Shown here: piece by piece, positions 9,319 to 63,123 of the stretch | How positions within the stretch are numbered: the stretch's first letter is position 1 | Layout: every line of letters begins with the position of its first letter | Source: Alphaproteobacteria bacterium | GTDB taxonomy: Bacteria; Pseudomonadota; Alphaproteobacteria; UBA6615 | Direction of reading: 5' to 3' | Assembly: GCA_965261975.1 (NCBI GenBank) | Contig: CBDHEC010000051.1 | Coordinates: 32,001 to 96,000 of the forward strand | Length of the DNA stretch: 64,000 nucleotides | The notes under the pieces: model-generated | What the model was told of the DNA's origin: nothing | The model's input: only the letters and a program-made list of their open reading frames with translations | Database searches by the model: none | Position numbers and translations under genes: made by a program

Positions 9319-9352
9319 CGCGTGTACTCCGGGCTTGGTTCCAAGCAACATG

Positions 9353-9386
9353 AAAAAAGGGTGGCCGCACAGCGCGACCACCCTTT
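9353..9386 (-). terminator. Intrinsic-terminator-like hairpin between the TAXI binding protein and permease genes
   Basis: AAGGGTGG...CCACCCTT stem followed by a T-run on the minus strand. Confidence 0.6.
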
Positions 9387-9410
9387 GTTTCAGTCCTGAT
9401 CAGGCAAGAA

Positions 9411-10424: not shown

Positions 10425-10529
10425 GGTTTTCTCCCTAGTGAGCGAAATGTTTGTTGTTATTTGCGCGGAGACTAATCCCGGCTCAGAAATCCCGCTATGA
10501 GCAAATATGCGTATAGCCACACTCAGCCC

Positions 10530-10566
10530 TGCGGATTTCCGCAGGGAAAGGTTGCGGATATCTCTC
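10530..10566. promoter_or_regulatory. Putative tandem DctD-type upstream activator sites
   Basis: Palindrome TGCGGATTTCCGCA (10530-10543; TGCGGAAATCCGCA on the minus strand) resembles the rhizobial DctD site. A degenerate second copy TGCGGATATC lies 23 nt away, upstream of the TAXI gene. Confidence 0.6.
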
Positions 10567-11864: not shown

Positions 11865-13647
11865 TGCCAGTCTCCCTCGCGTCGGGCAGGGGCAGCTCGA
11901 GGATGAACTCGGCCCCGCCACTCATCCGGTTGCGTGCGGACAGGGTCCCGCCATGTTCGTTAACGATCCCGGCCGAGATCGCCAGCCCGAGCCCGAGGCC
12001 TTCGCCCGATGCCTTGGTGGTCACGAAGGGTTCGAAGATGGCGGTCTCCTGTCCACCTGACAGTCCGACCCCCGTATCGGAGACGATGATCCGGGCATGG
12101 ACGTCGTCTGTCGCAAGCGTGATTGTCAGTTTTTTCCGGCTGCTCGATTGCATCGCATCCAGTGCGTTTCCGATCATGTTGATAAGCACCTGTTCGAGGC
12201 GCATGCGACCGCCGCGAACCGTGACGGTTTGCGTGACGTCGACGCAATCGAGCTCCGCACCCTCGGTCTTGATGGCCGGGTTCATCGTTTCAAGAGCACC
12301 CGTAATCACATCCGCCAGATCAATATCTGCAAAATCCTCACCGCCGCGGCGCGCGAAAAACTTGAGCTGCCGGGTGGTCTCCGCCATGCGGTCGACGAGG
12401 CGGTCGAGCTGGTCGAGCACCGGGTGTCCGGCGCGTTCGTCGACGACGACAGAGCCTGACGCTGCGGGCTCGGGAAGCCGGGCGCCCGCAATATAGGTCT
12501 TCATGGCCGACAGGGGTTGGCCGAGCTCATGGGTAACCGAGGCGGCGAGTTGTCCGAGCGCTGCGAGGCGCGAAGTCTGCCGCAATTCCTTTTGTGCCGC
12601 CTGCAAACGTGTTTCTGCCTCGATCCGCTCCTCGATCTCGCGACCAAGCTCCTTGTTCAGCCGGTTAAGCTGTTCGCGCTCGCGTTGGGAAGCGATCAAC
12701 GAGTTACGAATTCGCTCGGTACGCAGGATCAGGAAGACCACCAGCAACAGTGACAACGCGACGACCGTTATGACCAGGACGATGCGGCTGCGTGCGAGCA
12801 CACGCTCATAGGGCGACAGGAAGTGCAGGCGCCAGTCGAGCCGTCCCACATCGACGATATGCTCGACGAACCTGGCGCCGTCGATGGTCACGACCCGGCC
12901 GTCGCGAGAGGCGTCGATCGGGTTCAGCAGGGCTGTCCCGAACTGCCGGCGTGATGTGATGCGTTCGCGTGCTTGCGGCGAAAGCGTATCGAGTGTGCCG
13001 TATCGCCATGACGGGCGGGCCGACAAAACGATGATTCCGTCACGGTTGCTGATGAACACCGTGCCCTCCGGCGTCTCCCAATTCGCTTCCAGGCCGCGGA
13101 GACCGACTTTCACCGTGATGACGCCGATGGTCTGGTCCGCCCCGTCACGCACGGGGTGCGAGACGAAGTAGCCGGGCTGACCGGTCGTTGCGCCGACGGC
13201 GAAATACTCGCCGGTGTCGCCCGCCAGGGCGGACTGGAAGTAGGGCCGAAACCCGTAATTGTGACCGAGGAATGTTTGCTCGCTTTGCCAGTTGGAAGCG
13301 GCGATCGTCAGGCCGGTACTGTCCATCAGGTACACGGCCTCGGAACGGGTTGCCTCGGAAAATCGTTCCAGGCGGCGGTTCAGAATATCGGCCGGCGCAC
13401 CTTGCGCGACGTCGATGATCTCGTGATCTTCCGAAAGTATGGGCGTGATGTTCTGATACCGCTCGAGAACAGAGGCCAGCGAGGTGAGGTAGGGGGCGGC
13501 ACGCCGCGCGGAGGCTTCCAGTTCGCGCTGAACATAATACTTCTCGGCGAGCTTGAACTCACCGAAAGCGGCGAACAGGCCGACGATCAGCAAAACGATC
13601 AGGATCGTCGTGCGTCGGCCCGGTGCGTTGTCGAAAATGAAGCTCAT
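11857..13647 (-). CDS. DctB-like sensor histidine kinase
   Basis: Cache domain 'AASNW...FLGHNYGFRPYF...GATTGQPGYF', H-box THELGQPL, and G-boxes FEPFVTTK / GLGLGLAIS. Confidence 0.9.
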   Translation of the reverse strand: MSFIFDNAPGRRTTILIVLLIVGLFAAFGEFKLAEKYYVQRELEASARRAAPYLTSLASVLERYQNITPILSEDHEIIDVAQGAPADILNRRLERFSEATRSEAVYLMDSTGLTIAASNWQSEQTFLGHNYGFRPYFQSALAGDTGEYFAVGATTGQPGYFVSHPVRDGADQTIGVITVKVGLRGLEANWETPEGTVFISNRDGIIVLSARPSWRYGTLDTLSPQARERITSRRQFGTALLNPIDASRDGRVVTIDGARFVEHIVDVGRLDWRLHFLSPYERVLARSRIVLVITVVALSLLLVVFLILRTERIRNSLIASQREREQLNRLNKELGREIEERIEAETRLQAAQKELRQTSRLAALGQLAASVTHELGQPLSAMKTYIAGARLPEPAASGSVVVDERAGHPVLDQLDRLVDRMAETTRQLKFFARRGGEDFADIDLADVITGALETMNPAIKTEGAELDCVDVTQTVTVRGGRMRLEQVLINMIGNALDAMQSSSRKKLTITLATDDVHARIIVSDTGVGLSGGQETAIFEPFVTTKASGEGLGLGLAISAGIVNEHGGTLSARNRMSGGAEFILELPLPDARETGNA

Positions 13648-13741
13648 GGCATCATGTTTAGCGAATTCTGGGCCCGATGTCCGCCGGTCAGGCCTGTTTT
13701 CACTTGACGGGCCGGTGGGTAAAGGCAGAGAAAACCGGGGT

Positions 13742-13818
13742 CGGGGCGTAGCTCAGCCTGGTAGAGCACCTGCTTTGGGAGCAGGGGGTCGCGTGTTCGA
13801 ATCTCGTCGCCCCGACCA
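13742..13818 (+). tRNA. tRNA-Pro(TGG)
   Basis: CGGGGCG acceptor stem, anticodon arm CCTGC-TT TGG GA-GCAGG, TTCGAAT T-loop, 3' CCA. Confidence 0.97.
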
Positions 13819-13839
13819 TTTCCTTGCATGAGGTGCGCC

Positions 13840-14592
13840 ATGCGTCTGCACGACCGTACAGCTTTCGTCACCGGCGGCTCAAAGGGCCTGGGTCGGGCCA
13901 TCGCCGAACGTTTCGTCGAGGAAGGCGCGCGGGTCGTCGCCGCCGATATCGATCAGCCCGCACTTGACCAGTTCATGGCGGAAACGGAGGTCGATACGGG
14001 CTGTCTGACGCCGGTCGTCCTGGACGTTTCGGACTTCGAGGCCGTCAAGGCGGCGATCGACGGGGCCATTGCGGATTTCGGCGCGCTGGACATCCTGGTC
14101 AACAATGCCGGCTACTCGCCCAAGAAGAACTGGCTGGAATACGAGATTTCCGACTGGCAGAAGGTACTCGACGTCAATCTGAGCGGCGAATTCTACGGTG
14201 CCCGCGCGGTCGCGGAACACATGATGGAACGCAAGAGTGGGCGGATCATCAACCTATCATCCTCGGCCTGGCGCCATGGCGGCGTGGCCACGGGCGGCGG
14301 ATTGCCCTACACCTCCTCCAAAGCCGGGGTGATTGGTCTGACCCGCGCCCTGTGCAAGGCGCTCGGGCCCTACAACATTACCGTCAACGCCATCGCGCCG
14401 GGCCCGACACCCACGCCGATGACGTCGTCATGGCTGTCCGACGCGGAAGAGGCCCTGAAAGAACAGATTCCGCTGCGCCGCCTCGGCACCGCACGCGACA
14501 TCGCCAACGCCGCACTGTTCCTGGCCTCGGACGAGGCGGCGTTCATCACCGGCAGCTGTCTCGACGTCAACGGCGGCCTGACCATGAGTTAG
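13840..14592 (+). CDS. SDR family oxidoreductase (FabG-like)
   Basis: TGGSKGLG, NNAG and YTSSK. Confidence 0.9.
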   Translation: MRLHDRTAFVTGGSKGLGRAIAERFVEEGARVVAADIDQPALDQFMAETEVDTGCLTPVVLDVSDFEAVKAAIDGAIADFGALDILVNNAGYSPKKNWLEYEISDWQKVLDVNLSGEFYGARAVAEHMMERKSGRIINLSSSAWRHGGVATGGGLPYTSSKAGVIGLTRALCKALGPYNITVNAIAPGPTPTPMTSSWLSDAEEALKEQIPLRRLGTARDIANAALFLASDEAAFITGSCLDVNGGLTMS

Positions 14593-14669
14593 GCGTGAAC
14601 CGTGTTGACGGCGAAGCGCGCACACCTGTACGAAGTTGATGGCCCAACCAGATACTTGAGAGACCTGCC

Positions 14670-14975
14670 ATGAAGGCCCGTATTTTTCAGCCCACCAAGA
14701 CCGCCATGCAGTCCGGCCGCGCGAAGACCCAGAATTGGGTGCTCGAATTCGAGCCGACGCGCCGTCAGCAGCTCGACCCTCTGATGGGCTGGCCGGGCGC
14801 GGGCGACACGATGCAGCAGGTCCGGATGCGCTTCGAAAGCCGCGAGGACGCGATCGCCCATGCAGAGCGCCACGGGCTCGATTATGTGGTGCAGGAGCCC
14901 AAGGAAAGACAAATAAAGCCAAAGGCTTACGCGGACAACTTCGCGGTCGGGCGCAGGATTCCCTGGAGCCACTGA
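14670..14975 (+). CDS. ETC complex I subunit (NDUFS4-like)
   Basis: ARIFQPTKTAMQSG, DPLMGW and YADNF. Confidence 0.92.
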   Translation: MKARIFQPTKTAMQSGRAKTQNWVLEFEPTRRQQLDPLMGWPGAGDTMQQVRMRFESREDAIAHAERHGLDYVVQEPKERQIKPKAYADNFAVGRRIPWSH

Positions 14976-15059
14976 CCGGCCCCAGGTTTCGCATTCGGAA
15001 TTTGAGGTTTCGCGATTCCGGTGAATCCGGCGATGCTGGTTCATCCGAAGCGTTGCGCG

Positions 15060-15136
15060 GCGCCCGTAGCTCAGCTGGATAGAGCATCGGCCTTCTAAGC
15101 CGAATGTCGCAGGTTCGAATCCTGCCGGGCGCGCCA
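15060..15136 (+). tRNA. tRNA-Arg(TCT)
   Basis: GCGCCCG acceptor stem, TCGGC-CT TCT AA-GCCGA anticodon arm, GGTTCGAATCC, 3' CCA. Confidence 0.97.
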
Positions 15137-15242
15137 AACGCTACTTCTCTATCGAAAAACCGCAAGAATCGGGTGGATCGGCGGTCGTGCATGCGGCACG
15201 TGTGTGTCGAATTTTCTCCCGCGCCCGGGGCAGTACGAAGCC

Positions 15243-16175
15243 ATGTCCGACACACCGAAAATTCTCGACCGAACCGACTGGGGACTGCTGGTCCTGCTCT
15301 CGGTGCTGTGGGGCGCAACATTTTTCTTTGCCGGCATCGCTGTTGCGGGAGTCCCGCCGCTGACCGTTGTATTTGCGCGGGTGCTGCTGGCGGCCTTGAT
15401 GCTTCTGCCGCTGTTCTGGATGAAGGGGCTTCGTCTGCCGCGCACGGCCGGGGAGTGGGCGCCTTTTTTCATCATGGGGCTGCTGAACAATGTCATCCCT
15501 TTCGGTTTCCTGTTCGCGGCACAAACCCTGATTTCCGTTGGCCTGACATCTATCGTGAACGCGATGACGCCATTGTTCAGCATCGTGGTCATGGCGGCCT
15601 TCGGAGTGGAGCGGCTGACCGGCAACCGAATCGCCGGGGTGGTGCTTGGTGTCGTCGGGGTGGCCGTGCTTCGCGGCGTGGGCGGACCGCTGGGTGGACC
15701 CGAGACGATCGGAATTGCGCTCGGCCTTGTGGGCACCCTCAGCTACGGGTTTGCGGCACTATGGGCGCGGCGGCGTTTGCAGGGTGTCCCGCCGTTGCGG
15801 TCTGCGACCTGCCAGCTTCTGTCTTCGAGCCTCGTGATGATTCCCGTGGTCACGGTGTTCGATCAACCATGGACGCTCGGTATGCCGAGTATGAATGCGT
15901 TGATGTCGATCCTCGCGCTCGCATTCTTCGGCACCGCGATGGCCTATATTGTCTTCTTCCGCATCATCGAACGCGCCGGCGCCAGCAACGTGATGCTGGT
16001 GACCCTTTTGATACCAGTCAGTGCGATATCGCTTGGTGTCGCGTTTCTCGATGAGCCGCTACGGCTGCAGGAGGTTGCGGGCGCGCTGATCATCGGTCTC
16101 GGCCTGTTGTTCATCGACGGTCGTTTGCCGCGGAAGCTTGGCCTGGAAGCTAACCGGTCCAGGCACCGCCATTGA
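15243..16175 (+). CDS. EamA/DMT family transporter
   Basis: Two EamA repeats; LLSVLWGATFFF, GLLNNVIPF, VTLLIPVSAI. Confidence 0.9.
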   Translation: MSDTPKILDRTDWGLLVLLSVLWGATFFFAGIAVAGVPPLTVVFARVLLAALMLLPLFWMKGLRLPRTAGEWAPFFIMGLLNNVIPFGFLFAAQTLISVGLTSIVNAMTPLFSIVVMAAFGVERLTGNRIAGVVLGVVGVAVLRGVGGPLGGPETIGIALGLVGTLSYGFAALWARRRLQGVPPLRSATCQLLSSSLVMIPVVTVFDQPWTLGMPSMNALMSILALAFFGTAMAYIVFFRIIERAGASNVMLVTLLIPVSAISLGVAFLDEPLRLQEVAGALIIGLGLLFIDGRLPRKLGLEANRSRHRH

Positions 16176-16908
16176 CGTCCAGAACCGCGCCCGTCGTAAA
16201 CGCTGCCCCCGGTGTGCACAGATACCAGATGGCGTGAGCCAGTTCCTCTGGCTTGCCCAGGCGGCCGACGGGGATGGCCTTTGCGCGCGCGTCGAGAACA
16301 TCTTGCGGATGGCGTGTCACCCGCGGTGTGAGCACGAGGCCCGGTGCGATGGCATTGATCGTGATGCCGTCGGGTGCCAGTTCCTTGGCGAGGCGGCGGG
16401 TCATGCCGATGATTGCGGCCTCGGTCGTTGAATATTCGATGGCGCCTGCGCCTGCCGTGCGACCCGCGACCGACGAGATGTTGACGATCCGGCCGTACTT
16501 GTTGGCCTTCATGGTCGGCACCAGCTCGCGGGTGATCAGGAACTTGGCGATCACGTTCCAGTCGTAGCTGTGGTGCATCGCATCCAGCGTGATTTCCTCG
16601 AGCGGCGGCGCATCGATGAAACCACCCGCCGTGTTCACGAGGATGTCGGCACGGCCCCACGTATCGAGAATGGTCTTCGTGGCGGCCTTGACCTCGTCCT
16701 CGTCGGCGCATTCGGCCTTCACGAACATCGCCTCGCCGCCGGCATCGGCGATGCGTTTGACGACCGCGTCGCCCTTTTCTGGCGTGCGACCGATCACGGC
16801 GACCTTCGCGCCTTCTGCGCCGAAGCGCACGGCGGCGGCTTCGCCCATGCCGGCAGTTCCCCCGGTGACGACGGCAACCTGGCCGGTGATATCGGTAAGT
16901 TCGCTCAT
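16150..16908 (-). CDS. SDR family oxidoreductase
   Basis: TGGTAGMG, NISSVAG and NAIAPG. The catalytic motif reads YSTTE, so the usual Lys is replaced. Confidence 0.85.
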   Translation of the reverse strand: MSELTDITGQVAVVTGGTAGMGEAAAVRFGAEGAKVAVIGRTPEKGDAVVKRIADAGGEAMFVKAECADEDEVKAATKTILDTWGRADILVNTAGGFIDAPPLEEITLDAMHHSYDWNVIAKFLITRELVPTMKANKYGRIVNISSVAGRTAGAGAIEYSTTEAAIIGMTRRLAKELAPDGITINAIAPGLVLTPRVTRHPQDVLDARAKAIPVGRLGKPEELAHAIWYLCTPGAAFTTGAVLDVNGGAWTG

Positions 16909-16912
16909 CGTT

Positions 16913-17590
16913 TCACGCCGCAATCGCGATGGTGCCGACATTATTCATGATCAGCGGCGCGTCCGTTAGGGCCTGGACCTCGTCGGCGGTTAACCCCGGC
17001 GCTACCTCGTCGAGCACCAGCCCGTCAGGCGTGACGGAGATCACTGCCATGTCGGTGAAGATGCGTGTCACAACACCGCCGGCGGTGAGGGGATAGCTGC
17101 GTTCGGCGACGATCTTGGCAGCCCCGTCGCGCGCGGTGTGGGTCATCATCGCAAACACCCGCTTGGAGCCGGCCGCGATGTCCATCGCGCCGCCCACGCT
17201 GCCGGAAGTCTGGTTGGGCAGGCGCCAGTTGCAGAGGTCACCGTTCGCAGCCACCTGGAACGCGCCGAGGACCGCGCAATCGAGCCGCCCGCCGCGGGCG
17301 ATGGCGAAACTGTCTGCGTGGTGGGTATAGGCCCCGCCGGGAACCATGGTCACCAGTTCCTTGCCGGCGCTGATCAGGTCCTGGTCGGCCTCGCCCTCGG
17401 CCGGGGGCGGGCCCATGCCGATCAGGCCGTTTTCCGAATGGAACATCACATCGCGTTCGCCGGGGATGAAGGTGGGGATCATGGTCGGCATGCCGATGCC
17501 GAGATTGACCAGCCAGCCATCTTCCATGTCCTGGGCCGCGCGGGCCGCGATCTGTTGCCGGGTCAGCAGGTTTGTCTGTTCGTCGCTCAT
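16913..17590 (-). CDS. 3-oxoacid CoA-transferase subunit B
   Basis: VNLGIGMPT, catalytic SENG, GGAMD. Confidence 0.92.
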   Translation of the reverse strand: MSDEQTNLLTRQQIAARAAQDMEDGWLVNLGIGMPTMIPTFIPGERDVMFHSENGLIGMGPPPAEGEADQDLISAGKELVTMVPGGAYTHHADSFAIARGGRLDCAVLGAFQVAANGDLCNWRLPNQTSGSVGGAMDIAAGSKRVFAMMTHTARDGAAKIVAERSYPLTAGGVVTRIFTDMAVISVTPDGLVLDEVAPGLTADEVQALTDAPLIMNNVGTIAIAA

Positions 17591-18282
17591 GATGCGTTGC
17601 GCTCCTTGCCGATCTCGTACCAGCCGGTGACATAGTAGGTATCCACGAAAACCCCGGGCGTCACGATGACTTCCGGGTCCAGGTCGTCGATCTCGACGTC
17701 TTCCTGCACCTCGACGATCGTGTGCCCGGCGGCCATGGCCATGATCGGGTTAAAATTCCGGCCGGTCTTGCGGTAGATAAGATTGCCGCGCGGATCTACC
17801 TTGTAGGCCTTGATCAAGGCGAAATCACCACGGAGTGGTTTCTCCAGCACGTAATCCTTGCCGTCGACATTCATCGTTTGCTTGCCGTCGGCCAGGTCGG
17901 TACCCACGCCGGTCGGCGTCAGGAACCCACCGAGGCCGGCACCCGCCGTGCGCATCCGCTCGGCCAGGGTGCCCTGGGGCACGATCTCGAGTTCGATCTT
18001 GCCGGCGTCGTATAATTCCTTGAAAACAAATGATTCCTTGGCCCAAGGGAAGCTGCAGATCAGCTTTCCAACGCAACCTTCCTCGATCAGCCGTGCGATG
18101 CCGCTATGGCCGGTGCCCGCATTGTTGGTGACGATGGTGAGGTCGCGCCGTTTCAGGTCGCAGACCCCGTCGATCAACACTTCCGGCACGCCGGGCTGGC
18201 CGAAGCCGCCGACCAGCAGGGTTGCGCCGTCGGGGATACGGCTGACGGCGTCTTCGAGGGTTTCGGCTTTCTTGTTTTTCAT
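17587..18282 (-). CDS. 3-oxoacid CoA-transferase subunit A
   Basis: VGGFG, PQGTLAER, RNFNPIMA. True start is likely ATG 18282. Confidence 0.92.
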   Translation of the reverse strand: MKNKKAETLEDAVSRIPDGATLLVGGFGQPGVPEVLIDGVCDLKRRDLTIVTNNAGTGHSGIARLIEEGCVGKLICSFPWAKESFVFKELYDAGKIELEIVPQGTLAERMRTAGAGLGGFLTPTGVGTDLADGKQTMNVDGKDYVLEKPLRGDFALIKAYKVDPRGNLIYRKTGRNFNPIMAMAAGHTIVEVQEDVEIDDLDPEVIVTPGVFVDTYYVTGWYEIGKERNAS

Positions 18283-53651: not shown

Positions 53652-53682
53652 CAAAAAGGACCAGCCTGAGAGGCTGGTCCTT
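53652..53682 (-). terminator. Intrinsic terminator after tRNA-Asn
   Basis: AAGGACCAGCCT-GAG-AGGCTGGTCCTT inverted repeat followed by a T-run on the minus strand. Confidence 0.8.
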
Positions 53683-53815: not shown

Positions 53816-54775
53816 TCATTTGTTGTCGGGAACAATCCAGGTGCCGGTCTCGCCGGCGATCGCGCGCCCAAGATTTTGCGGGTTGGTGATGATCCCGGTC
53901 GCACCGCCAGCCTCGATAAACTCTGTAATCGCATCGATTTTTGGTCCCATTCTGCCTTCGGGAAACTGACCGTCAGCCTTGTGGGCACGGGCTTCGGAGA
54001 CGGTCATGCGATCGATCCAGCTTTCGTCAGGCTGGCCGAAGTTCACCGCCACTTTCTCGACTTCCGTCGTGATAACCAGAAACTCCGCATTGAGTTCATG
54101 GGCCAGTAGGCTCGAAGCACGATCCTTGTCGATGACCGCCTCAAGGCCCTGCAAGTCTCCCTCGGAGTCGCGATAAACGGGGATCCCGCCGCCACCGCAG
54201 GCGATGACGATGTGATTCGCATCGATGAGGGACCCGATCGCGCCGATATCCACTATGGACTGCGGGCGAGGGGAGGCAACAACGCGCCGCCAACCGCGAT
54301 CACCTTCCTCGCGCACGTGCCAGCCGTGCTCGGCGGCGTGTTGCTTGGCAAAGGCTTCGCTCATATGCGACCCGATGGGCTTGGAAGGCTCGTCGAATGC
54401 CGGGTCTGCCCGATCTACCAGTACCTGTGTGACCACTGCGACCGCCTCGCGCGGGATGCCGCGGCGGCGCATTTCGTTCTGCATGGCCCGCTGGAACATC
54501 CAGCCGATGGCCCCCTGGGTGTCGGCGCCGGCGTAATCCATGGGAACCGGCGGAACTTCGGCGATTGCAATTTCGGAACGGCGAAGGATAAACCCGACCT
54601 GCGGTCCGTTGCCGTGGGTCAGGACGACGTCCCAGCCCTGTTCAATCATGTCGGCGACGTGACCTACGGTGATGGCGGCAGCGGCATACTGATCAGGGAT
54701 CGACTTGTGGTCTGCGTCGATGATCAGTGAATTTCCGCCGGCTGCTACGACGGCGGTCTTCTGGCGTGGCGGCAT
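53816..54775 (-). CDS. arcC: Carbamate kinase
   Basis: GGNSL, THGNGPQVG, TQGAIG, PSKPIG, WRRVVASP, GGGGIPV, AVIDKD, MGPK. Confidence 0.93.
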   Translation of the reverse strand: MPPRQKTAVVAAGGNSLIIDADHKSIPDQYAAAAITVGHVADMIEQGWDVVLTHGNGPQVGFILRRSEIAIAEVPPVPMDYAGADTQGAIGWMFQRAMQNEMRRRGIPREAVAVVTQVLVDRADPAFDEPSKPIGSHMSEAFAKQHAAEHGWHVREEGDRGWRRVVASPRPQSIVDIGAIGSLIDANHIVIACGGGGIPVYRDSEGDLQGLEAVIDKDRASSLLAHELNAEFLVITTEVEKVAVNFGQPDESWIDRMTVSEARAHKADGQFPEGRMGPKIDAITEFIEAGGATGIITNPQNLGRAIAGETGTWIVPDNK

Positions 54776-54804
54776 GTCGACGCCTCCTTCCGAAGCCTCA
54801 ATTG

Positions 54805-56208
54805 TCAGTCAACAAATGTCTCCGCGAGCGCGGCGACTGCCGCTGAAAAGCAAGTGAGTGGCGCGTGGGTAATGCCTGCGCCGACTTGTCCGATGCCAGC
54901 CTCTCGATGAGCGATGCCGGTGTTGATGACGGGCGCGATTCCGGTGTCGACGACCTTGCGGATATCGATGCCCGCTGGTGTTGCCATGAAATCAAGGGCG
55001 GGCAGGGTGAAGGCTGTATTGCGACCGAATGTGATGTGGGCCATACGCTGCGAATTCGCGAGCGCGTCGGACGCTGTCCCCCCGACAAACTGCACGATGG
55101 CGGGCGATGCGGCCATGGCGAAGGCCCCGATCCCGCAAGTCTCGGTGATCGAGCTGTCTCCCAGATCGGGATTGGCGTCGGCGGTGCTGTAGCCGGGGAA
55201 AAACAACCCGTCGATGATCGAGGCGGGCGCCTCGAACCAGGTGTCACCCAGGCCGCTCACCCGAATTCCGAAATTGACGCCGTTGCGCGCCATGGCCGTC
55301 ACGAGGCTTGACCCGGGGACACCATGGGCAGCGTCGAGCATGGATTTGCATGCCGCCATCGAGAGGTTGAGAAAGAAATGATCGTTCGAATTAATGAAGG
55401 TGACCACCTCGGACAGGGTCTTCGGGTCGAGGCCAGCCTCCAGTGCGGCCGGTATTAGTCGTTTTATCAGTAACGCAGACGCCGCACCGTTGCGGTTGTG
55501 CACTTCGTCACCCATGTGCAGCGCCTGGGCCATGATGGGCTTGAGTTCGAGATCGCCGAGTGTCTCGAGCGTTGCGGCCAGCGCTGGTGCGAGCACGTCG
55601 CGCATCCATTCCAGGTGGCTGATGACATCGGGAGAGTTGGCGCCGAAACGCAACACCTTGCCAAGCCCCTCGTTCAGGTTCGAAAACGTCGTGTGATCAT
55701 GGACCGGGTCCTCGATGATCCAGAGCGGCATCGACGGGCTGATGATGCCGGCCATCGGCCCTACGGCACCGAAATGGTGGCAGGGTGCGAAAGTGATTTC
55801 GCCCGACCCCGCGAGCGCCTCGGCATCTTCCGGTGTGTCGGCCCAGCCTTCGTAAACACAAGCGCCGGCAATCGCACCGCGAACCGGCGCGCACATGTCG
55901 TCCCAGCCAATCGGTGGGCCGGAGTGAAGGATCGTCCGTTCGCCCAGGCCGTCGAGTACATCGCGTGCGATACCAACGCCGCGCAGGGTTGGCTGCGCGG
56001 CGAGATAACGCGCGAAAGCTGTCTGGTTCGCGTTCTCGATGTCTTCCCGATTGGTGAGGCGGGCGAGCGCGCGCGCGATGTCCTCATCATGCGCAGGTGG
56101 TGCCCAGTTTACATCGACCACGCTGCTGCCGGCGGCACGAATTGGCTCGGCGAACTGCGCCAACCCGACATTGATCACCGAAAGCGGTGTTCCGAACAGA
56201 TTGCTCAT
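54805..56208 (-). CDS. DUF1116 (YlbE/YahG/AllG-like) protein
   Basis: LHSGPP, PCHH..AVGPMAG, NEGLGKVLRFGA, ALHMGDEVHNRN, DLGDSSITET.G, INTGIAH. Confidence 0.92.
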   Translation of the reverse strand: MSNLFGTPLSVINVGLAQFAEPIRAAGSSVVDVNWAPPAHDEDIARALARLTNREDIENANQTAFARYLAAQPTLRGVGIARDVLDGLGERTILHSGPPIGWDDMCAPVRGAIAGACVYEGWADTPEDAEALAGSGEITFAPCHHFGAVGPMAGIISPSMPLWIIEDPVHDHTTFSNLNEGLGKVLRFGANSPDVISHLEWMRDVLAPALAATLETLGDLELKPIMAQALHMGDEVHNRNGAASALLIKRLIPAALEAGLDPKTLSEVVTFINSNDHFFLNLSMAACKSMLDAAHGVPGSSLVTAMARNGVNFGIRVSGLGDTWFEAPASIIDGLFFPGYSTADANPDLGDSSITETCGIGAFAMAASPAIVQFVGGTASDALANSQRMAHITFGRNTAFTLPALDFMATPAGIDIRKVVDTGIAPVINTGIAHREAGIGQVGAGITHAPLTCFSAAVAALAETFVD

Positions 56209-57728
56209 TGTGCGCTCTCCAGGATCGCAGCGGCGGTGCGGACCGCCTGGGCGTTGTTGTCGGCCACAAGAACGCCGAGATCGGACATTGCGTCACGCTG
56301 GCGTGCAAGGCCCTGGGGGTCGCCATCCGTGCCACAGACGAAGCCAAGCATAACGGGGCCGCCGGCTTTCAAGGCCGGCACCGATGACAGGGCCGGCGCC
56401 ATGGCTGAGAGAGGATCCTCATGGGCCCCATGTCCGAGCACCACGTCAAACAGGATTACCGCCGTGTCGGCGTTCTGCGCCTCGGCCACGATACGGTCGT
56501 TACGCAGCCGGTGGTCGATCATGGGATGGGGCCGGCCGCGGGTGAAGATATCGTCGCCGAGATCAAGGATGGTGTGAGATGCGCTCGTCCAGGGGTCGTT
56601 CAGGACCTGGATTCCGGCACTGGACGTGTTCGAGTGAACGCCTTCAAGCCTCCCGGCCAGCATTGTTAGTGCTTCGTAACAAAAGGTACCGCCGCTATAG
56701 AGCGCGCGGACATGACGGCGCTCCCCGGACAGGCTGGGCAGCGGCGTATCAATCAGTTCGCTCGCCGCGGCGGCCGTGCTGCCGGAAGCCGCAATGGCGA
56801 GTTGCGCGGCTTCCTCGAGGGTGCTTGCGTAGGAAACACCTGAAAGCCCTGACCCTTCCGGCGTGTGTCCCAACAGACAGGCGATAACTGGCTTGCCGGA
56901 TGCCACGGCATGCTCGATCACGTTCTGCGCGACATCGGCTGCGGGTGGTTTCGAGATCAACACGATGACCTGTGTGTCGGGGTCGGCGCCGAGCAAGGTT
57001 ATGGCGTGTTTTGTCGTGCGGCCACCGATCCGGCTGTCGAGATCGCGACCGCCGGTGCCGATCGCCTGGGACACGCCGCACCCGGCGGCATCGACAAGAC
57101 AGGAAACCTGCTGCAAGCCGGTGCCCGAAGCGGCGACAATCCCGATCGTGCCCCGGCGCACGACATTGGCGAAACCGAGTGGTGAGCCGTCGATGATCGC
57201 GGTACCGCAATCGGGCCCCATGACCATGAGGCCAGCCTGATCAGCCTGGGTTTTTAGGGCAAGCTCGTCTTCGATCGACACATTATCGCTGAACATCATC
57301 ACATTCAGTCCGAGCCGCACTGATTTGAATGCTTCGGCTGCCGCGAATGGGCCCGGGGTGGCAATCAGCGTGAAATTTGCCGCCACATTCGCGTCCAGCG
57401 CCATCTCGATGCTCCGCAGTGGTTCGGTTTCCGCGGTACCACCGCCCACGATCTCCGGCTCGGCGCGCAACTCGGCTTCGGCGGCATCGAGCGCTGCGCC
57501 CAATGTCGCTTCGGAATCGGCCTCCACCGCGATCAGCACCTCGTTCGCGCGCGCGCCGGGATCGCCCTCGATCAGCCCTGCCTCGCGCAGCAGATCCAGG
57601 TTTGCCGGGGTTGCCATGATGCAGGATGCCTGGCTGATCCCGTCGAGAAGGGAGATCGCCGACGAGATTTTCATCAGGGCAAGGGAGTCCCGGTACATGT
57701 CGGCAATGATGCGTGTTCCCATAATCAT
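56205..57728 (-). CDS. fdrA: FdrA (YahF/AllF-like, succinyl-CoA-synthetase-alpha-like) protein
   Basis: YRDSLALM, MMFSDNV, MGPDCGTA, ASGTGLQ, GTGGRDL, GGTFCYEA, DLGDD.FT.GRPHPMID. Confidence 0.92.
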   Translation of the reverse strand: MIMGTRIIADMYRDSLALMKISSAISLLDGISQASCIMATPANLDLLREAGLIEGDPGARANEVLIAVEADSEATLGAALDAAEAELRAEPEIVGGGTAETEPLRSIEMALDANVAANFTLIATPGPFAAAEAFKSVRLGLNVMMFSDNVSIEDELALKTQADQAGLMVMGPDCGTAIIDGSPLGFANVVRRGTIGIVAASGTGLQQVSCLVDAAGCGVSQAIGTGGRDLDSRIGGRTTKHAITLLGADPDTQVIVLISKPPAADVAQNVIEHAVASGKPVIACLLGHTPEGSGLSGVSYASTLEEAAQLAIAASGSTAAAASELIDTPLPSLSGERRHVRALYSGGTFCYEALTMLAGRLEGVHSNTSSAGIQVLNDPWTSASHTILDLGDDIFTRGRPHPMIDHRLRNDRIVAEAQNADTAVILFDVVLGHGAHEDPLSAMAPALSSVPALKAGGPVMLGFVCGTDGDPQGLARQRDAMSDLGVLVADNNAQAVRTAAAILESAQ

Positions 57729-58687
57729 CGGGTTACTTTCTCGTGCAAGTGAGCTTCGTTGAGTTTGTCGATGACCCGCTCGCGAAGTGCGGGTTCATGG
57801 ACGGTCAGGCCACACAACAAACCGAAAACGGTATCGCGGCCCGAGCTGTGTCCCATGTCCGTGACGTCGGCAAGGCGTGCGGGAATGTCATCGGCATCGG
57901 TCGCAATGGCATCGGTGAGTTTTGTCAAAGGAGATGAAAACCTGCCGGCTGCGGCATGAGCAATGCAGGCGCGGGAGACGTCGGTGCTGTCGCACGATTT
58001 GACGAGCGCGGCCTGAATGAGCTGCCGGAGAAAATCCTTCTGTGCGGGCTCATTGGCGCCGTCCCGGAAGCCCAGAAAATAGCCGGTTGCGAAATCGTCA
58101 CCGGAGGGGGTCAGGCCAGGCCCACGTCCAATTAGGCGATTCAAACACGCCGTGGAAACCGGCAGGTCTGCATTGGGGGCGGCGCGTATGAGTTCGGGAA
58201 CCGTCGTCTGGACGCTGCGCGCAAGTGCGCGACCGTATGAGTCCCGTCGCGGATCGGGGGAGAGTGCCATCGCGAATCCGGCCGCACCATGGGCATCGAT
58301 GAACAGCGACCATGCGTTGATCCAGCCGGCGATCAGCCTGGAGCTTTCCCGTTTTGTGGGTGAGGTTTGTTGCGCCCAGGCAATCGACGCGGCGGTACGG
58401 AAATCAAACGCCAGTTCGGTGCCTTGTATTCGCAGGATTCCGGCGCGCATGGCAAAACCCGCACCCGGGCGGACCAGTCGTGAAAAGTTGACCGTCGCGG
58501 GCGCGTCGATGCGCGCGGTGCCGGGTGCCAGGGCTGCATTGTTGCGCGCGTCGATGGTGACAAGCGTCCGCGCGTTGTCTTCCGTATCCACTGCCAGGTT
58601 CATGACGCGGCGGAACACACTCATGGTTGTCCCGTTCGCGATTTGCGCAGGGAAATGCTCCGGCATGTCGCTCACAGCCAAACGCAT
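57725..58687 (-). CDS. DUF2877 (YlbF/AllH-like) protein
   Basis: SVFRRVMNL, LIGRGPGLTPSGDDF..G, TDVS, GHSSG.D...G. Confidence 0.88.
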   Translation of the reverse strand: MRLAVSDMPEHFPAQIANGTTMSVFRRVMNLAVDTEDNARTLVTIDARNNAALAPGTARIDAPATVNFSRLVRPGAGFAMRAGILRIQGTELAFDFRTAASIAWAQQTSPTKRESSRLIAGWINAWSLFIDAHGAAGFAMALSPDPRRDSYGRALARSVQTTVPELIRAAPNADLPVSTACLNRLIGRGPGLTPSGDDFATGYFLGFRDGANEPAQKDFLRQLIQAALVKSCDSTDVSRACIAHAAAGRFSSPLTKLTDAIATDADDIPARLADVTDMGHSSGRDTVFGLLCGLTVHEPALRERVIDKLNEAHLHEKVTR

Positions 58688-58732
58688 GTAGTTTCCTTAT
58701 CGCTCTGCCCATTCGATACGGGCTTTGGAAAT

Positions 58733-58767
58733 AAAAACCGGCGGGCTCCCGCTGGAAGCCCGCCGGT
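58733..58767 (-). terminator. Terminator-like hairpin between the permease and DUF2877 genes
   Basis: ACCGGCGGGCT...AGCCCGCCGGT stem followed by TTTTATTT on the minus strand. Confidence 0.7.
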
Positions 58768-58781
58768 GTTCAGTTGGTCAA

Positions 58782-60344
58782 TCAGTCCGCTTTGGCCTCG
58801 GTCTTCTCAAGACCGTCACACCAGAACAGGATCGCGGCGACAGCCAGATATGCAATCGTGATCGTCGGCGATATGCCGAGCCCGTTGCCGATCCCCACCG
58901 CGGGGCCGTGGATGAACCCGAAATAGGTCAGCACGGCAGCGCTCAGTGCGAAGGCGGCCGCAGGCTTGTAGTTGCGGTCAATGATGAAGACGGCCATGGC
59001 ACCGAAGATGAGCCCGACGAGGATGGCGCCACTGCCCATGACCTCGAGGCCTCTGTAGAGCACGCCTTGATTGGCCAGTTTGTCCAATCCAACTGCCCCG
59101 GCGTTGGTGCCGGCCGCACCGAGCGCGCCATCGATCAAAACTTTGCCCCAAGCCGCAAGGTTGGGGATGAGTGCAAAGATGACCGCCGGTGCGTGTTTGG
59201 ACGGCGTCGCCTGGAACGCCTGCGCACCGATCAGCATGCCGATGTAGAGCAGAATCGGGATGATCGCGACTTGCGGGATGACCGCAAGCAACAACCCGAC
59301 AATCCCGAGCCATGTCACCACGAGCACGAAAATGCCGGTCACGGCGGAATAGCCGATCCGTCCACCCATCTCTTTCCAGCCGGGATGTCCGATATAGACG
59401 GCGTTGGCGAATGGGCTGCCGAACAGGGTGCCAACGAGGCTGATGATGCCCTCGGCACCGATCACCTGTTTCTCGCTGTACTCATCGCCCGCCACGGCCG
59501 CACTTTCGACATTGTCCATGGCTTCGATGAAGTCGTAGACGCCGAACGGGATCGCTGTCACCAGGATGAAGGCCCAATGCTGGTTGAGGCCGTCGAACAC
59601 CTGGCCGATCGAGATGGCCGGCAAGGCGAAACCGATAGCACCGATCGACTGGCTCACGCTGTCCACACTCATAAGTCCGATACCGAGATCGAACCAGGTG
59701 CTGAGCCAGGCTAACGCCGTACCGACGCCGATGGCGATCAGGCCGGCGGGAACCTTGCCGGGGTAACGCACACCGCCGAACCAGCCGGCCAGGATGATGG
59801 CCAGCGAAATCAGACCGATCACCGGGCTTTGGAAAATCTCCATCGCCGGTTTCATCGAGATGAAGGTGATCGAGATACCCGCAAGCGTACCCAAAAGGGC
59901 GGCACGCGGCGTCAGGCGGCGGACATGCGGTGCCACGAACGCACCCGCAAACAGCACGAGGCCCTCAATGAAGACCCAGGCGAGACCGGCCTGCCAGGCC
60001 AGCAAGGGATCGCCGGTCTGGATCTTGATGGGCAGCATGATCGCCAGCACGACGAAGAACATGTGCGGGACGCTGGGCCCCGAGGGTAAGGCGGCGACGT
60101 CGCTGCGCCCGCTCTTGTCGGCAAGTTTCCGAGCCAGATAGGCGTAGAACATGTTGCCGAGAAAGATCATCAGCCCGACAGCCGGCAGAATACGGCCGAA
60201 GATGACGTCGTCGGGCAGTTGAATGACGAATTTCAGAAGGCCCGTGAGGACCAGAAGATTGACCAGGACGTTTGTCCCGAGGCCAAACAGGGCGTTCCAG
60301 TCTCCCGGAACCCACCATGAAGCTTTCGTTGTACTCATTCGCAT
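58782..60344 (-). CDS. NCS2/AzgA-like nucleobase or ureide permease
   Basis: About 13 TM helices; GDWNALFG, ALPSGPSVPH, PRAALLGTLAG, NVESA..AGD.Y, VYIGHPGWK.MGGRIGYS. Confidence 0.8.
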   Translation of the reverse strand: MRMSTTKASWWVPGDWNALFGLGTNVLVNLLVLTGLLKFVIQLPDDVIFGRILPAVGLMIFLGNMFYAYLARKLADKSGRSDVAALPSGPSVPHMFFVVLAIMLPIKIQTGDPLLAWQAGLAWVFIEGLVLFAGAFVAPHVRRLTPRAALLGTLAGISITFISMKPAMEIFQSPVIGLISLAIILAGWFGGVRYPGKVPAGLIAIGVGTALAWLSTWFDLGIGLMSVDSVSQSIGAIGFALPAISIGQVFDGLNQHWAFILVTAIPFGVYDFIEAMDNVESAAVAGDEYSEKQVIGAEGIISLVGTLFGSPFANAVYIGHPGWKEMGGRIGYSAVTGIFVLVVTWLGIVGLLLAVIPQVAIIPILLYIGMLIGAQAFQATPSKHAPAVIFALIPNLAAWGKVLIDGALGAAGTNAGAVGLDKLANQGVLYRGLEVMGSGAILVGLIFGAMAVFIIDRNYKPAAAFALSAAVLTYFGFIHGPAVGIGNGLGISPTITIAYLAVAAILFWCDGLEKTEAKAD

Positions 60345-60407
60345 TTTCCCACTATCGAACGTGTTTAATCAGAAAGGCTGTTATGGCCAGATTTCTCCTG
60401 TTCGCAG

Positions 60408-61082
60408 TCACCCCAGCGCCTGAACGGCGCGGGCGGAATCGCTTACCCATCCGAAGATTCCGCCCTGGGCCTTGATCATTTCCAGTCCGACCCGCTGAAA
60501 CTCCGGAAAATAGGATCCCACACAATCGGCCAGCACCAGGCACTCATATCCGCGGTCATTGGCCTGACGAACGGTTGTGTGGACGCAGACCTCGGTGGTC
60601 ACGCCGCAGACAATCAGCGTCGTGATGCCCCGGTTCTGCAGGATCAGATCCAGGTCGGTTTCGTAAAAGGCACCCTTGCCGGGCTTGTCGACGACCGGCT
60701 CGTGCGCACCGGGGGCGAGTTCCGGAATGATGTCATGACCCGGTTCACCCCGGACCAATATTCGTCCCATGGGGCCCGGATCACCGATTCCGACTTCCAG
60801 CCCGCCGCGTGCAAGTTTGCTGGGTGGCGCGTCGGTCAGGTCCGGACGGTGACCTTCGCGTGTGTGTATGACCGTCAAACCCGCGTTTCGTGCAGCTTTC
60901 AGGACTAGTGTGCAGGGTTCGATGGTCGTCCGTAACAGCGACACGTCATTGCCCAGCATCTCACCGAATCCGCCGGGCTCGAGGAAGTCGCGTTGCATAT
61001 CGATGATAAGGAGCGCTGTCGCAGCCGGTTCGAACGGCAAGGGATAGGGCTCAGCTTCGAAAATATGGCTTTTCGTCACCAA
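60408..61082 (-). CDS. Isochorismatase-family cysteine hydrolase, triuret hydrolase (TrtA)-like
   Basis: D-K-C triad (IDMQ, DKPGKG, TTEVC) in the biuret/triuret subfamily scaffold (HTREGH, GIGDPGP.GRIL.RGEPG, QGG.FG), with TrtA-type GGFG..LGND and SYFPEF. Confidence 0.8.
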
Positions 61083-61266
61083 ATCGGTCCCCTATGGAGT
61101 CATGTAGCTCTATAACGAGTACAATATGCCGCTAACCCTGAAACGCTACACCGCTGCGTTCCGCGTTGGGAAGGTCCGGCGATGCCCAATACAGCGCCAT
61201 GTTGCTGCAAAAGGCCTCGTTGGATTCTGTTCGCAAATGAAAAACACCGGCAATAGGTTGATAAAT

Positions 61267-63123
61267 ATGAATTTTAGCAGCCTGCGCGAGCAATATGATC
61301 GATCCCCCGCTGACGTAGATAAAGTCGTGCGTGAAGTTCTGGCGCGGGTGGAAGACGCAGATGACGGAAACATCTGGATCGCACGGGTTCCCGATGCCGA
61401 AGTGCTGGCGGCGGTTAAACGGCTGTCCGACTTGGACCCTGCAGATTTGCCGCTTTTCGGTATTCCATTTGCTGTGAAGGACAATATCGACGTCGCCGGT
61501 ATGCCGACGACAGCGGGCTGCCCGGAATTCGCCTATACGCCTGACGTATCGTCACCAGTTGTGGAGCGCCTGATCGGAGCTGGTGCAATCCTGATCGGCA
61601 AGACCAATCTCGACCAGTTTGCGGCGGGACTGGTCGGCACCCGGTCGCCATATGGTGCGTGCCAGAACGCATTTGATCCGGCGTATGTTTCGGGTGGCTC
61701 CAGTTCCGGTACGGCTGTCGCCGTTGCACGCGGCTTGGTGAGCTTCTCGCTCGGTACGGATACCGCAGGTTCGGGCCGTGTTCCCGCAGCATTCAACAAT
61801 ATTGTCGGGTTGAAGCCTTCGCGCGGCGTGCTGAGCGCGCGCGGCGTGGTGCCAGCATGTCGCACGCTGGACTGCATATCCATCTTCGCCAACTGCACCG
61901 CTGACGCAGAAGCCGTGCTCGACGTGGCTGCGGGGTTTGATGAAGACGATGCCTACTCGCGCGATGAGACGGCCGTCTCGCAGGGCACCGCCATCTCTCC
62001 GGACGTCGCGAGAATTGGCGTACCGAAATCCGACGGTCTCGAATTCTTCGGTGATGCAGCGGCCGAGAGGCTGTTCCAAGAGGCCGTTATGCGGGCTGAG
62101 GGTCTCGGTGCAAAGATCGTCGAGGTTGATCTGGCGCCGTTCCTGGAGGCCGCGCGACTGCTTTACGAAGGTCCGTGGGTAGCCGAGCGCTATGTCGGGA
62201 TTCGCGAGTTTTTCGATGCCCATCCGGACGCCGTACACCCGGTGACACGCGAAATCATCGGTGGCGGTGCGACCCCCAGTGCGGCAGAAGCGTTCGCGGC
62301 TGAATACCGGATGCAGGCCTTGCGGCGAAAGGTCGAACCCGTTTGGCAGGACATCGACGTCATGATGACCCCGACCGCTGGGACAATCTACACGATCGCC
62401 GAACTCGCGGCGGATCCGATTCAATTGAATTCGAACCTGGGTTACTACACCAACTATATGAACCTGCTGGATATGTGCGGTGTCGCGGTTCCGGCGGGAT
62501 TCCTCGACAATGGCCTGCCTTTCGGGATCACATTCGTCGCGCCGGCTTTTCGGGACCGCGCGGTTCTTCCGTTGGCCGATGCCATGCATCGTGCGGCCGA
62601 AACGGGCATGGGCGCGGCCCGGGCGGCATTGCCTGAAACCGCGCCGGATGGCGGTGCTTCGGTCGACGGCATGATGTTGATCGTCGCCTGTGGCGCCCAC
62701 ATGTCTGGCCTGCCGCTGAATCATCAATTGACCGAGCGCGGTGCCAAGCTGGTGCGCTCGACACGATCCGCGGCGAACTATCGGTTCTACGCGCTTGAGG
62801 CTTTCGAGCCGCCGCGGCCGGGAATGATTCGAACGGAAACCGACGGGGTGGCGATCGATGTCGAGGTATGGGCCATTCCGCAGGCGCAATTCGGCAGCTT
62901 TATGGCCGGGATTCCGGCACCGCTGGGGATTGGAACCGTTGAACTCGAGGATGGGTCCCTGGTGAAGGGCTTCATCTGCGAAGGCTATGCGGCCGAGGGT
63001 GCGCTGGATATTTCCGACCTGGGAAGCTGGCGCGGGTATTTAGCGGCGAAGGGCTTACACCCGCAGGGGGTCAGAGCTCATAGCTGCGGACCCTGTCCAC
63101 CGTATTCGCTGCCGCGTTTATGA
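61267..63123 (+). CDS. atzF: Allophanate hydrolase
   Basis: Amidase signature VKDNIDVAG, GKTNLDQF..GLVGTRSPYG, GGSSSG, GTDTAGSGRVPA, LYEGPWVAER, plus the C-terminal domain GAHMSGLPLN...PLGIG...GFICE. Confidence 0.93.
   Translation: MNFSSLREQYDRSPADVDKVVREVLARVEDADDGNIWIARVPDAEVLAAVKRLSDLDPADLPLFGIPFAVKDNIDVAGMPTTAGCPEFAYTPDVSSPVVERLIGAGAILIGKTNLDQFAAGLVGTRSPYGACQNAFDPAYVSGGSSSGTAVAVARGLVSFSLGTDTAGSGRVPAAFNNIVGLKPSRGVLSARGVVPACRTLDCISIFANCTADAEAVLDVAAGFDEDDAYSRDETAVSQGTAISPDVARIGVPKSDGLEFFGDAAAERLFQEAVMRAEGLGAKIVEVDLAPFLEAARLLYEGPWVAERYVGIREFFDAHPDAVHPVTREIIGGGATPSAAEAFAAEYRMQALRRKVEPVWQDIDVMMTPTAGTIYTIAELAADPIQLNSNLGYYTNYMNLLDMCGVAVPAGFLDNGLPFGITFVAPAFRDRAVLPLADAMHRAAETGMGAARAALPETAPDGGASVDGMMLIVACGAHMSGLPLNHQLTERGAKLVRSTRSAANYRFYALEAFEPPRPGMIRTETDGVAIDVEVWAIPQAQFGSFMAGIPAPLGIGTVELEDGSLVKGFICEGYAAEGALDISDLGSWRGYLAAKGLHPQGVRAHSCGPCPPYSLPRL

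Follow-up and report, generated by a model that had tools for sequence, protein, structure and literature searches.

Triuret degradation has been described in Herbaspirillum sp. BH-1 and Rhizobium leguminosarum as a purely hydrolytic route that yields no ATP: TrtA acts first, followed by TrtB or spontaneous decarboxylation, the biuret hydrolase BiuH and the allophanate hydrolase AtzF (available text of PMC7948467). The TrtA product, 1-carboxybiuret (below, carboxybiuret), has a half-life of about 20 min and decays to biuret, and the AtzE/AtzG/AtzH set acts on carboxybiuret itself (same text). The AtzEG-AtzH-AtzF route of Pseudomonas sp. ADP is also hydrolytic, consisting of an amidase and a decarboxylating hydrolase, and involves no phosphate, carbamoyl phosphate or ATP. 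The E. coli system AllFGH-AllK, in which proteins of the FdrA, DUF1116 and DUF2877 families are encoded beside a carbamate kinase, has oxalurate as its substrate, and the activity of AllFGH was measured solely in the reverse direction, from oxamate and carbamoyl phosphate (available text of PMC11326118). Comammox Nitrospira and ammonia-oxidising archaea have trtA, biuH and atzF co-located with allFGHK (PMC12625717, 2025); as far as the available part of that paper goes, TrtB is absent where allFGHK is present, and its authors read separate triuret and oxalurate pathways. Here we consider a locus from an alphaproteobacterial genome, located in a window of 64,000 nucleotides (the whole stretch of contig CBDHEC010000051.1 that was analysed). 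In this locus the same gene families stand side by side without BiuH: a TrtA-type hydrolase, a permease, subunits like AllH, AllF and AllG (together AllHFG), a carbamate kinase and a divergent AtzF (Table 1).

We suggest, with a probability of roughly 45%, that the window encodes a modular triuret pathway proceeding by phosphorolysis of carboxybiuret to allophanate and carbamoyl phosphate. The permease, putatively of UraA fold, would import triuret, the TrtA-type hydrolase would convert it to carboxybiuret and NH3, and the AllH-AllF-AllG-like complex would move the terminal carbamoyl group from carboxybiuret onto phosphate, yielding allophanate and carbamoyl phosphate. Carbamate kinase would turn carbamoyl phosphate and ADP into ATP and carbamate, and AtzF would degrade allophanate to NH3 and CO2, both functions being established for their families; biuret and BiuH would be bypassed. 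We infer the AllHFG step from gene context. No other single step would do four things at once: use the product of TrtA, supply AtzF in a genome without another evident source of allophanate, explain why AllFG and BiuH appear as alternatives, and fit the interchange of AtzF with the free-standing AH_C domains that most relatives carry instead, because both would act on the same co-product: decarboxylation by AH_C would likewise remove allophanate. The window pathway probably also takes carboxybiuret from the cyanuric acid hydrolase encoded elsewhere in the genome.

Like the Herbaspirillum/Rhizobium pathway (PMC7948467, available text), the locus has a hydrolase with the TrtA specificity residues and would end in AtzF; it differs from that pathway in that BiuH is found in neither the window nor the genome, an AllHFG-like transferase and a carbamate kinase standing in its place. 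With the Pseudomonas route it would share the direct use of carboxybiuret, the delivery of allophanate to AtzF and the bypass of biuret.

Assignment of the window hydrolase to the TrtA rather than the BiuH type, already proposed in an earlier note on this DNA, is upheld by several comparisons. Among solved structures its best match is Herbaspirillum TrtA (6xix, 282.8 bits); the generalist Rhodococcus BiuH (6xjm) reaches 262.7 bits and Rhizobium BiuH 249 bits. The TrtA and BiuH consensus sequences differ at six positions, F35/Y, N41/Y, A134/S, E160/D, Y187/T and I205/V, amid which Q202 is common to both (available text of PMC7948467). The window protein has the TrtA state at all six (F39, N45, A138, E164, Y191, I209) and Q206 as the counterpart of Q202, and its catalytic triad D28-K133-C166 aligns with D24, K129 and C162 of TrtA. 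It reaches 280.8-281.3 bits against the BiuH equivalog NF050097 (cut-off 370) and lacks the Y/Y/D/T/V signature. Across 104 aligned sequences the six-residue signature is of TrtA type in 93, including the E. coli module discussed below, and of BiuH type in 11. Identity to the single characterised TrtA is about 60% (a rough estimate from the alignment), and the window hydrolase presumably converts triuret to carboxybiuret as that homologue does.

Paralogues scoring 230-236 bits in three alphaproteobacterial genomes (G002, G004, G005) were considered as a hidden BiuH and rejected, their signature being of neither TrtA nor BiuH type. They have Tyr at F35, Leu at N41 and Ser for the substrate-binding Gln202 (L179, L178 and L180, respectively), and the surrounding 18 kb are free of pathway genes. 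These hydrolases may form a third BiuH/TrtA-like subfamily, for which biuret activity is conceivable.

The rest of the window's genome bears on the fate of carboxybiuret. The assembly comprises 3.03 Mb and is 94.6% complete, an incompleteness that weakens every claim of absence; the loci closest to the window come from marine alphaproteobacterial metagenome-assembled genomes (MAGs). The BiuH model detected no equivalog in the genome as assembled, where the window's own hydrolase gives its single strong match. No urea carboxylase scored above its cut-off there, and the best AtzE match reached 259.7 bits against 425.75. AtzF is consequently left without an evident source of allophanate, because urea carboxylase, AtzE and BiuH are all below cut-off in the genome. 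For this organism biuret would be a dead-end product, and since carboxybiuret decays to biuret and the genome lacks BiuH, an enzyme that captures carboxybiuret is needed. A context that would supply oxalurate was not found: the best AllD match in the genome has 253.8 bits (TIGR03175, cut-off 496.2), and the allantoicase gene lies on another contig. A cyanuric acid hydrolase equivalog (439.5 bits, cut-off 360) is also encoded on a separate contig, in agreement with the earlier note, which had seen no BiuH, cyanuric acid hydrolase or allantoin genes in the window itself. The genome further encodes four Ldh_2-family dehydrogenases.

The cyanuric acid hydrolase (contig C36, L012, 6238-12892) is flanked by an FAD monooxygenase and a cytosine-deaminase-like amidohydrolase; in the same region only the C-terminal half of an amidase is present, with a single in-frame stop and then, upstream, a 435-amino-acid (aa) open reading frame (ORF) of no known family. 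The region of the urease alpha subunit (contig C59, 43830-45572) matches in several pieces in different frames with an internal TGA, none above cut-off, pointing to either a frameshift or an error of assembly in ureC.

The proposed transferase has the composition of AllFGH, since proteins of the three subunit families FdrA, DUF1116 and DUF2877 are encoded together with a carbamate kinase. The window proteins are nevertheless only 33-49% identical to the E. coli AllFGH-AllK proteins: AllH has 33% identity to E. coli AllH over 114 residues, AllF 38% to E. coli AllF (41% to YahF), AllG 49% to E. coli AllG (45.5% to YahG), and the kinase 37% to AllK (47% to YahI). The kinase passes NF009007, and its TIGR00746 score of 354.1 bits is slightly below the cut-off of 358.25. 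The genes are arranged H-F-G-K, which is the order of yahEFG-yahI and not the F-G-H-K of AllFGH-AllK, and the allantoin and AllD context of the latter is missing. The proposed substrate differs as well, being carboxybiuret instead of oxalurate. In quick trees of AllG, with support from the Shimodaira-Hasegawa-like approximate likelihood-ratio test (SH-aLRT), 25 rows represent TrtA loci, and 22 of them fell into one clade of 29 rows (SH-aLRT 99; main tree, 87 rows). This clade includes the window and the E. coli module and leaves out E. coli AllG and YahG; its remaining seven rows belong to alphaproteobacterial loci, each of them short, degenerate or without TrtA. Given these identities and the separate AllG clade, orthology of the window subunits to E. 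coli AllF, AllG and AllH was not found. In the available part of PMC7439467, DUF1116 is mentioned solely for the core gene ylbE.

To judge how far the association is conserved, we used the window AllG as a query against one genome per species and examined the best 80 of 117 relatives; ORFs of relatives were filtered by GC content at third codon positions, and locus counts were cross-checked with tblastn. A gene with the TrtA signature stands beside AllF/AllG in 14 of these loci in addition to the window. A homologue of the window's unnamed permease occurs in 12 of the 14 and carbamate kinase in 11. The bearers are Alphaproteobacteria, Betaproteobacteria (Rhizobacter, Caldimonas), Gammaproteobacteria (Succinatimonas, from the gut), Acidimicrobiia and Chloroflexia. 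Conservation of the gene association had been set beforehand as a test of the proposal, and the association does recur across several bacterial phyla. Only three of the 15 module-bearing genomes have BiuH above cut-off, and in 12 no match reaches it; one locus (L043) holds BiuH, AtzF, TrtA and AllFG together. Among 19 genomes checked, urea carboxylase was above cut-off in none and urease in 11. No urease match was obtained in two Succinatimonas genomes, the Chloroflexia MAG, G005, G009 and G015. AtzD is present in all eight alphaproteobacterial genomes of this set and in none of the other 11. The Succinatimonas module is adjoined by a LysR regulator resembling PunR/AllS.

A second view was taken from TrtA itself, by searching metagenomes with an alignment of 12 TrtA-type proteins and examining the best 80 of 587 relatives. 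AllH/F/G genes were found in 13 of these loci and BiuH in 11, and no locus combined the two. Counting only the 31 loci that span 7 kb or more gives 10 and 7, again without overlap, and 14 with neither. The 13 AllFG loci have a free-standing AH_C in seven cases, a full AtzF in two and neither in four; for the 11 BiuH loci the corresponding numbers are one AH_C alone, five AtzF and five neither. The permease homologue adjoins the TrtA gene in 51 of the 80 loci irrespective of the downstream module, and the TrtA-permease pair precedes BiuH in eight of the 11 BiuH loci. AtzE follows the pair in L121, together with AtzF, and in L137, together with an AtzH-like gene. Downstream of the TrtA-permease pair there are thus three alternative sets (AllHFG, BiuH, or AtzE with AtzG and an AtzH-like protein), and for the latter two disposal of the TrtA product is known. 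A plasmid of Terrarubrum flagellatum (L177, 9019-15134) has a variant of the third set; it carries a TrtA-type hydrolase, a permease homologue annotated as "regulator" and 62% identical to that of the window, AtzF, DUF4089, an AtzE-family amidase and HpxZ.

The AH_C domain deserves separate attention. Structural work on allophanate hydrolase has identified it as the part of the enzyme that decarboxylates N-carboxycarbamate. The window AtzF reaches 868.9 bits with NF006043 (cut-off 487), 304.5 bits with Pfam Amidase and 168.7 bits with AH_C, and its AH_C is the sole match to this domain in the window's genome. Exactly one AH_C match per genome was found in 17 of the 19 genomes, and 13 of the 15 module loci themselves contain AH_C, as part of a full AtzF in five and as a free-standing protein of about 130-150 aa in eight. 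From the function of the domain we suggest that AH_C, where it stands alone, may decarboxylate allophanate to urea, and that AH_C and the kinase together would draw off both products of the transferase. An ArcC-AH_C fusion, considered for frames of 468 aa, was rejected: the 501-aa ORF of L037 has the amino-acid-kinase domain only (residues 191-473), and its AH_C lies in a separate frame just downstream of the kinase ORF. In another locus (L013, 7150-7428; AllG 94% identical) the TrtA gene is cut to its first ~40 residues, the permease is missing and AtzF abuts AllHFG, which looks like a deletion of the TrtA-permease unit.

The module also occurs in E. coli. In a tblastn search of plasmids, 78 E. 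coli records, many of them from poultry, contained the TrtA-type gene (70.9% identity). On pACN001-B (L175, NC_023327.1, 12007-20185) the genes run in the order cysteine hydrolase, DUF2877, FdrA, DUF1116, ArcC, a 129-aa protein, an NCS1 "cytosine permease" and, last, a LysR regulator; the module genes are co-oriented and closely spaced, DUF2877 coming after TrtA within 6 nucleotides (nt). The 129-aa "hypothetical" protein is an AH_C domain (143.5 bits), the hydrolase has the full TrtA signature, and the transporter is evidently exchangeable, being of an unnamed, putatively UraA-fold family in the window and NCS1 here. Of the 5426 complete E. coli genomes searched, 1560 (~29%) contain the 7.2-kb module, with 1502 chromosomal copies at 90-95% identity and 127 on plasmids, including avian-associated IncF plasmids. 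Its AllG is 62% identical to that of the window, 48% to the strain's own AllG and 46.5% to YahG. Strains with the module keep allFGH; they carry three paralogous systems, because the module AllG stands apart from both AllG and YahG of E. coli. The chromosomal copy, GR29 of strain BEN2908, is described as RutB-like and pyrimidine-related in the available text of PMC12928451.

The joining of AllHFG to a second source of carboxy-terminated acylureas forms an independent parallel. The earlier note had mentioned fdrA/DUF1116/arcC genes near some cyanuric acid hydrolases, and such an arrangement was indeed found: in two of the 80 AllG loci (best 80 of 117), from Liberiplasma and a Clostridia MAG, an AtzD-family enzyme lies inside the AllHFG-ArcC operon. 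Its score of 358.4 bits is just under the cyanuric acid hydrolase cut-off of 360, and the subfamily model is passed. The same operons contain a cytosine-deaminase-like amidohydrolase, of the type that flanks AtzD in the window's genome. Both loci (L083, Liberiplasma polymorphum, 7623-17695; L067, 7399-15100) show an AllH-AllF-AllG-AllG'-ArcC operon with an AtzD-family ring-opening amidohydrolase. More distant AllGs (~46-57% identity; L032-L092, e.g., L061 and L075), found in Bacillota, Ignavibacteriota and other phyla, belong to sets in which AllH-AllF-AllG is followed by a cyclase-family protein (PF04199), and E. coli YahG groups with them; three nearby proteins are xanthine-dehydrogenase-like as judged by their sizes and order only.

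Several observations weigh against phosphorolysis of carboxybiuret. Carboxybiuret is one atom longer than oxalurate, and for the AllHFG-like clade we infer activity on it from gene context, while the E. coli relative was assayed in reverse only. AH_C stands alone, without an allophanate-hydrolysing amidase domain, in eight of the 15 genome loci and in seven of the 13 metagenome AllFG loci, and known activities leave the fate of allophanate in such modules unexplained; genomes G017 and G018 have AllHFG and AtzD without AH_C or AtzF. Among the eight AH_C-only genomes, the two of Succinatimonas and the Chloroflexia MAG are without urease and would waste half of the nitrogen. Carbamate kinase is missing from both Succinatimonas genomes, so complete mineralisation and ATP yield are not universal. 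In the window, a terminator-like hairpin found by a consensus scan parts TrtA-permease from AllHFG-ArcC. The exclusion of BiuH and AllFG is not absolute, given L043 and comammox Nitrospira (PMC12625717, available part), and the zero overlap in metagenomes is suggestive, being a matter of raw counts on many short contigs. The expectation that biuH and fdrA/DUF1116/DUF2877 exclude one another beside trtA is borne out by the metagenome counts (13, 11 and none with both, of 80) and by the 12 of 15 genomes without BiuH above cut-off, and breaks down in the loci that hold both. The claim that the route accounts for every gene is complicated by three facts, although the gene identities hold: relatives mostly have AH_C instead of AtzF, the kinase is not universal and some loci combine BiuH with AllFG.

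It is unlikely that the hydrolases act on another ureide, e.g., an acylurea derived from urate oxidation or from pyrimidines, which the module would then degrade. This would agree with the pyrimidine-related, RutB-like reading of the E. coli copy in the available text of PMC12928451, with the only ~60% identity of the window protein to one characterised TrtA, with the uncertain supply of triuret to gut anaerobes and to 29% of complete E. coli genomes, with the exchange of UraA-fold for NCS1 transporters and with the PunR/AllS-like regulator beside the Succinatimonas module. It agrees poorly with the six TrtA-type residues in 93 of 104 sequences, the E. coli module included, and with the TrtA-permease pair that also precedes BiuH+AtzF and AtzE/AtzH+AtzF sets, an arrangement fitting triuret or carboxybiuret. 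Somewhat more doubtful is phosphorolysis of biuret, in which carboxybiuret would be decarboxylated spontaneously or by a TrtB-like AH_C and AllHFG would convert biuret and phosphate to urea and carbamoyl phosphate. AllFG and BiuH as alternatives in the TrtA loci, AH_C as a universal partner with a known role in removing N-carboxy groups, and urease in five of the eight AH_C-only genomes, which could handle the urea, would all follow; the AtzF amidase domain would be left without a substrate, yet five of the 15 loci have a full AtzF and urea carboxylase was not found in the genomes. Moreover, biuret is neutral, unlike the one substrate known for the family, which has a carboxylate, and BiuH together with AllFG in L043 would be redundant.

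Still less probable are two separate pathways that happen to be co-located, AllHFG-ArcC for oxalurate and TrtA with AtzF for triuret, both scavenging oxidised purine products, as the available part of PMC12625717 reads its loci. Oxalurate is the substrate of the only characterised activity of the family, the hairpin parts the two halves in the window, and the genome has allantoicase and the four Ldh_2-family dehydrogenases; an Ldh_2 gene also lies near AtzF in L020 and L022. As an AllD candidate this dehydrogenase was rejected (TIGR03175, 230.9 against 496.2 bits for the L020 neighbour), and the window's genome has no AllD equivalog either. In the tree, the AllGs linked to TrtA group separately from E. 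coli AllG. In E. coli, allFGH is retained alongside the module, whose AllG is only 48% identical to the host's own, and the DUF2877 gene follows TrtA within 6 nt, with all module genes co-oriented. Without BiuH, TrtA alone would end in biuret, and separate pathways would not make AllFG and BiuH behave as alternatives. The least probable of these readings is that AllHFG cleaves allophanate to carbamate and carbamoyl phosphate, perhaps after carboxybiuret, so that the yield could reach two carbamoyl phosphates per triuret and the amidase would be dispensable. Only in this way could the Succinatimonas modules, which lack an amidase domain, urease and BiuH, free all nitrogen, and allophanate is, like oxalurate, an N-carbamoyl compound with a carboxylate; it is, however, one atom shorter than oxalurate, AH_C would have no role although it is nearly universal in the module, and the window AtzF would be redundant.

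The layout of the locus (Table 1) was established from a list of ORFs followed by Pfam and NCBIfam profile scans of the window proteins. These place and name all seven genes as the earlier note did, and the coordinates confirm its 4-nt overlaps among the middle three genes (AllH/AllF, 57725-57728; AllF/AllG, 56205-56208). Of the single co-oriented run that it described, the co-orientation stands; TrtA-permease and AllHFG-ArcC may instead be two adjacent transcription units, because a terminator-like hairpin sits between the permease and AllH. The AllH-AllF-AllG-ArcC unit is bracketed by two such hairpins, both strong. A promoter scan was uninformative, with one site, below the level of shuffled sequences. 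For AtzF the true start is probably 61267 or 61237, with 61267 the likeliest, rather than 61126, since matches to the family models start no earlier than residue 47.

Table 1. Features of the locus and their positions in the window.
Feature	Position	Strand	Support or remark
TrtA-type triuret hydrolase (predicted), isochorismatase-like cysteine hydrolase, 224 aa	60408-61082	-	PF00857, 157.9 bits
Membrane protein, 520 aa, candidate substrate importer	58782-60344	-	putative UraA/SLC23-type fold (model); outside Pfam/NCBIfam families
Terminator-like hairpin between permease and AllH	58737-58767	-	14-bp stem with 11 G-C pairs, then T-run; consensus scan
AllH/DUF2877-like subunit	57725-58687	-	PF11392, 82.7 bits
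AllF/FdrA-like subunit	56205-57728	-	NF004760, 447.9 bits (cut-off 433)
AllG/DUF1116-like subunit	54805-56208	-	PF06545, 325.9 bits
Carbamate kinase	53816-54775	-	NF009007, 357.9 bits (cut-off 266)
Terminator-like hairpin downstream of carbamate kinase	53656-53682	-	consensus scan
Allophanate hydrolase AtzF, amidase and AH_C domains, divergent	61126-63123	+	TIGR02713, 815.8 bits (cut-off 511.05)

The permease has no Pfam match even at E<=10 and no NCBIfam match, and hence no membership of Xan_ur_permease by sequence. In the Atlas it is surrounded by clusters without a name; the closest that has one is Xan_ur_permease at 0.89, which is a lead only. The AlphaFold2 model has a mean predicted local distance difference test score (pLDDT) of only 63.7, and a Foldseek search with this low-confidence model retrieved SVCT1 (8jez, E 1.6e-6, template-modelling score 0.50) and also UraA (5xls). 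From this tentative NCS2/SLC23-type fold (7+7 inverted repeats) and its place beside TrtA, the protein is a candidate importer of triuret.

In our literature searches carboxybiuret and carbamate kinase were mentioned together only in PMC12625717. The comammox and archaeal loci of that paper resemble the present one in their gene families and differ from it in including BiuH. No link between the product of TrtA and AllFGH was found in the texts searched; the Supplemental Results of PMC12625717 could bear on it. The enzyme families concerned are known, while the proposed substrate, the logic of the pathway, the AH_C partner and the wide distribution, including E. coli, were not found described in the available texts.

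If phosphorolysis of carboxybiuret is confirmed, it would be a third carboxybiuret route, phosphorolytic, beside the two hydrolytic ones through biuret and BiuH and through AtzEG/AtzH, and the first to conserve energy or to deliver ready-made carbamoyl phosphate. It would provide a second physiological substrate for the recently defined AllFGH transcarbamylase family, a function for the E. coli operon that PMC12928451, in its available text, reads as pyrimidine-related, and a new reading of allFGHK beside trtA and biuH in nitrifiers. Organisms with TrtA or AtzD and no BiuH would escape the biuret dead end. Because E. coli has a copy, the hypothesis lends itself to direct tests in a standard laboratory host. 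A bolder extension, which we regard as about as unlikely as a different ureide substrate, is that the AllHFG-type enzymes are general ureide decarbamoylating phosphorolases that convert carboxybiuret, formed from triuret or cyanuric acid, stepwise to allophanate and carbamate with up to two carbamoyl phosphates (ATP) per molecule, and that AH_C is a new N-carboxy decarboxylase pulling the reaction forward. In that case an unrecognised energy-conserving pathway for triuret and cyanuric acid would be present in ~29% of complete E. coli genomes and in bacteria of the gut, the soil and the sea.

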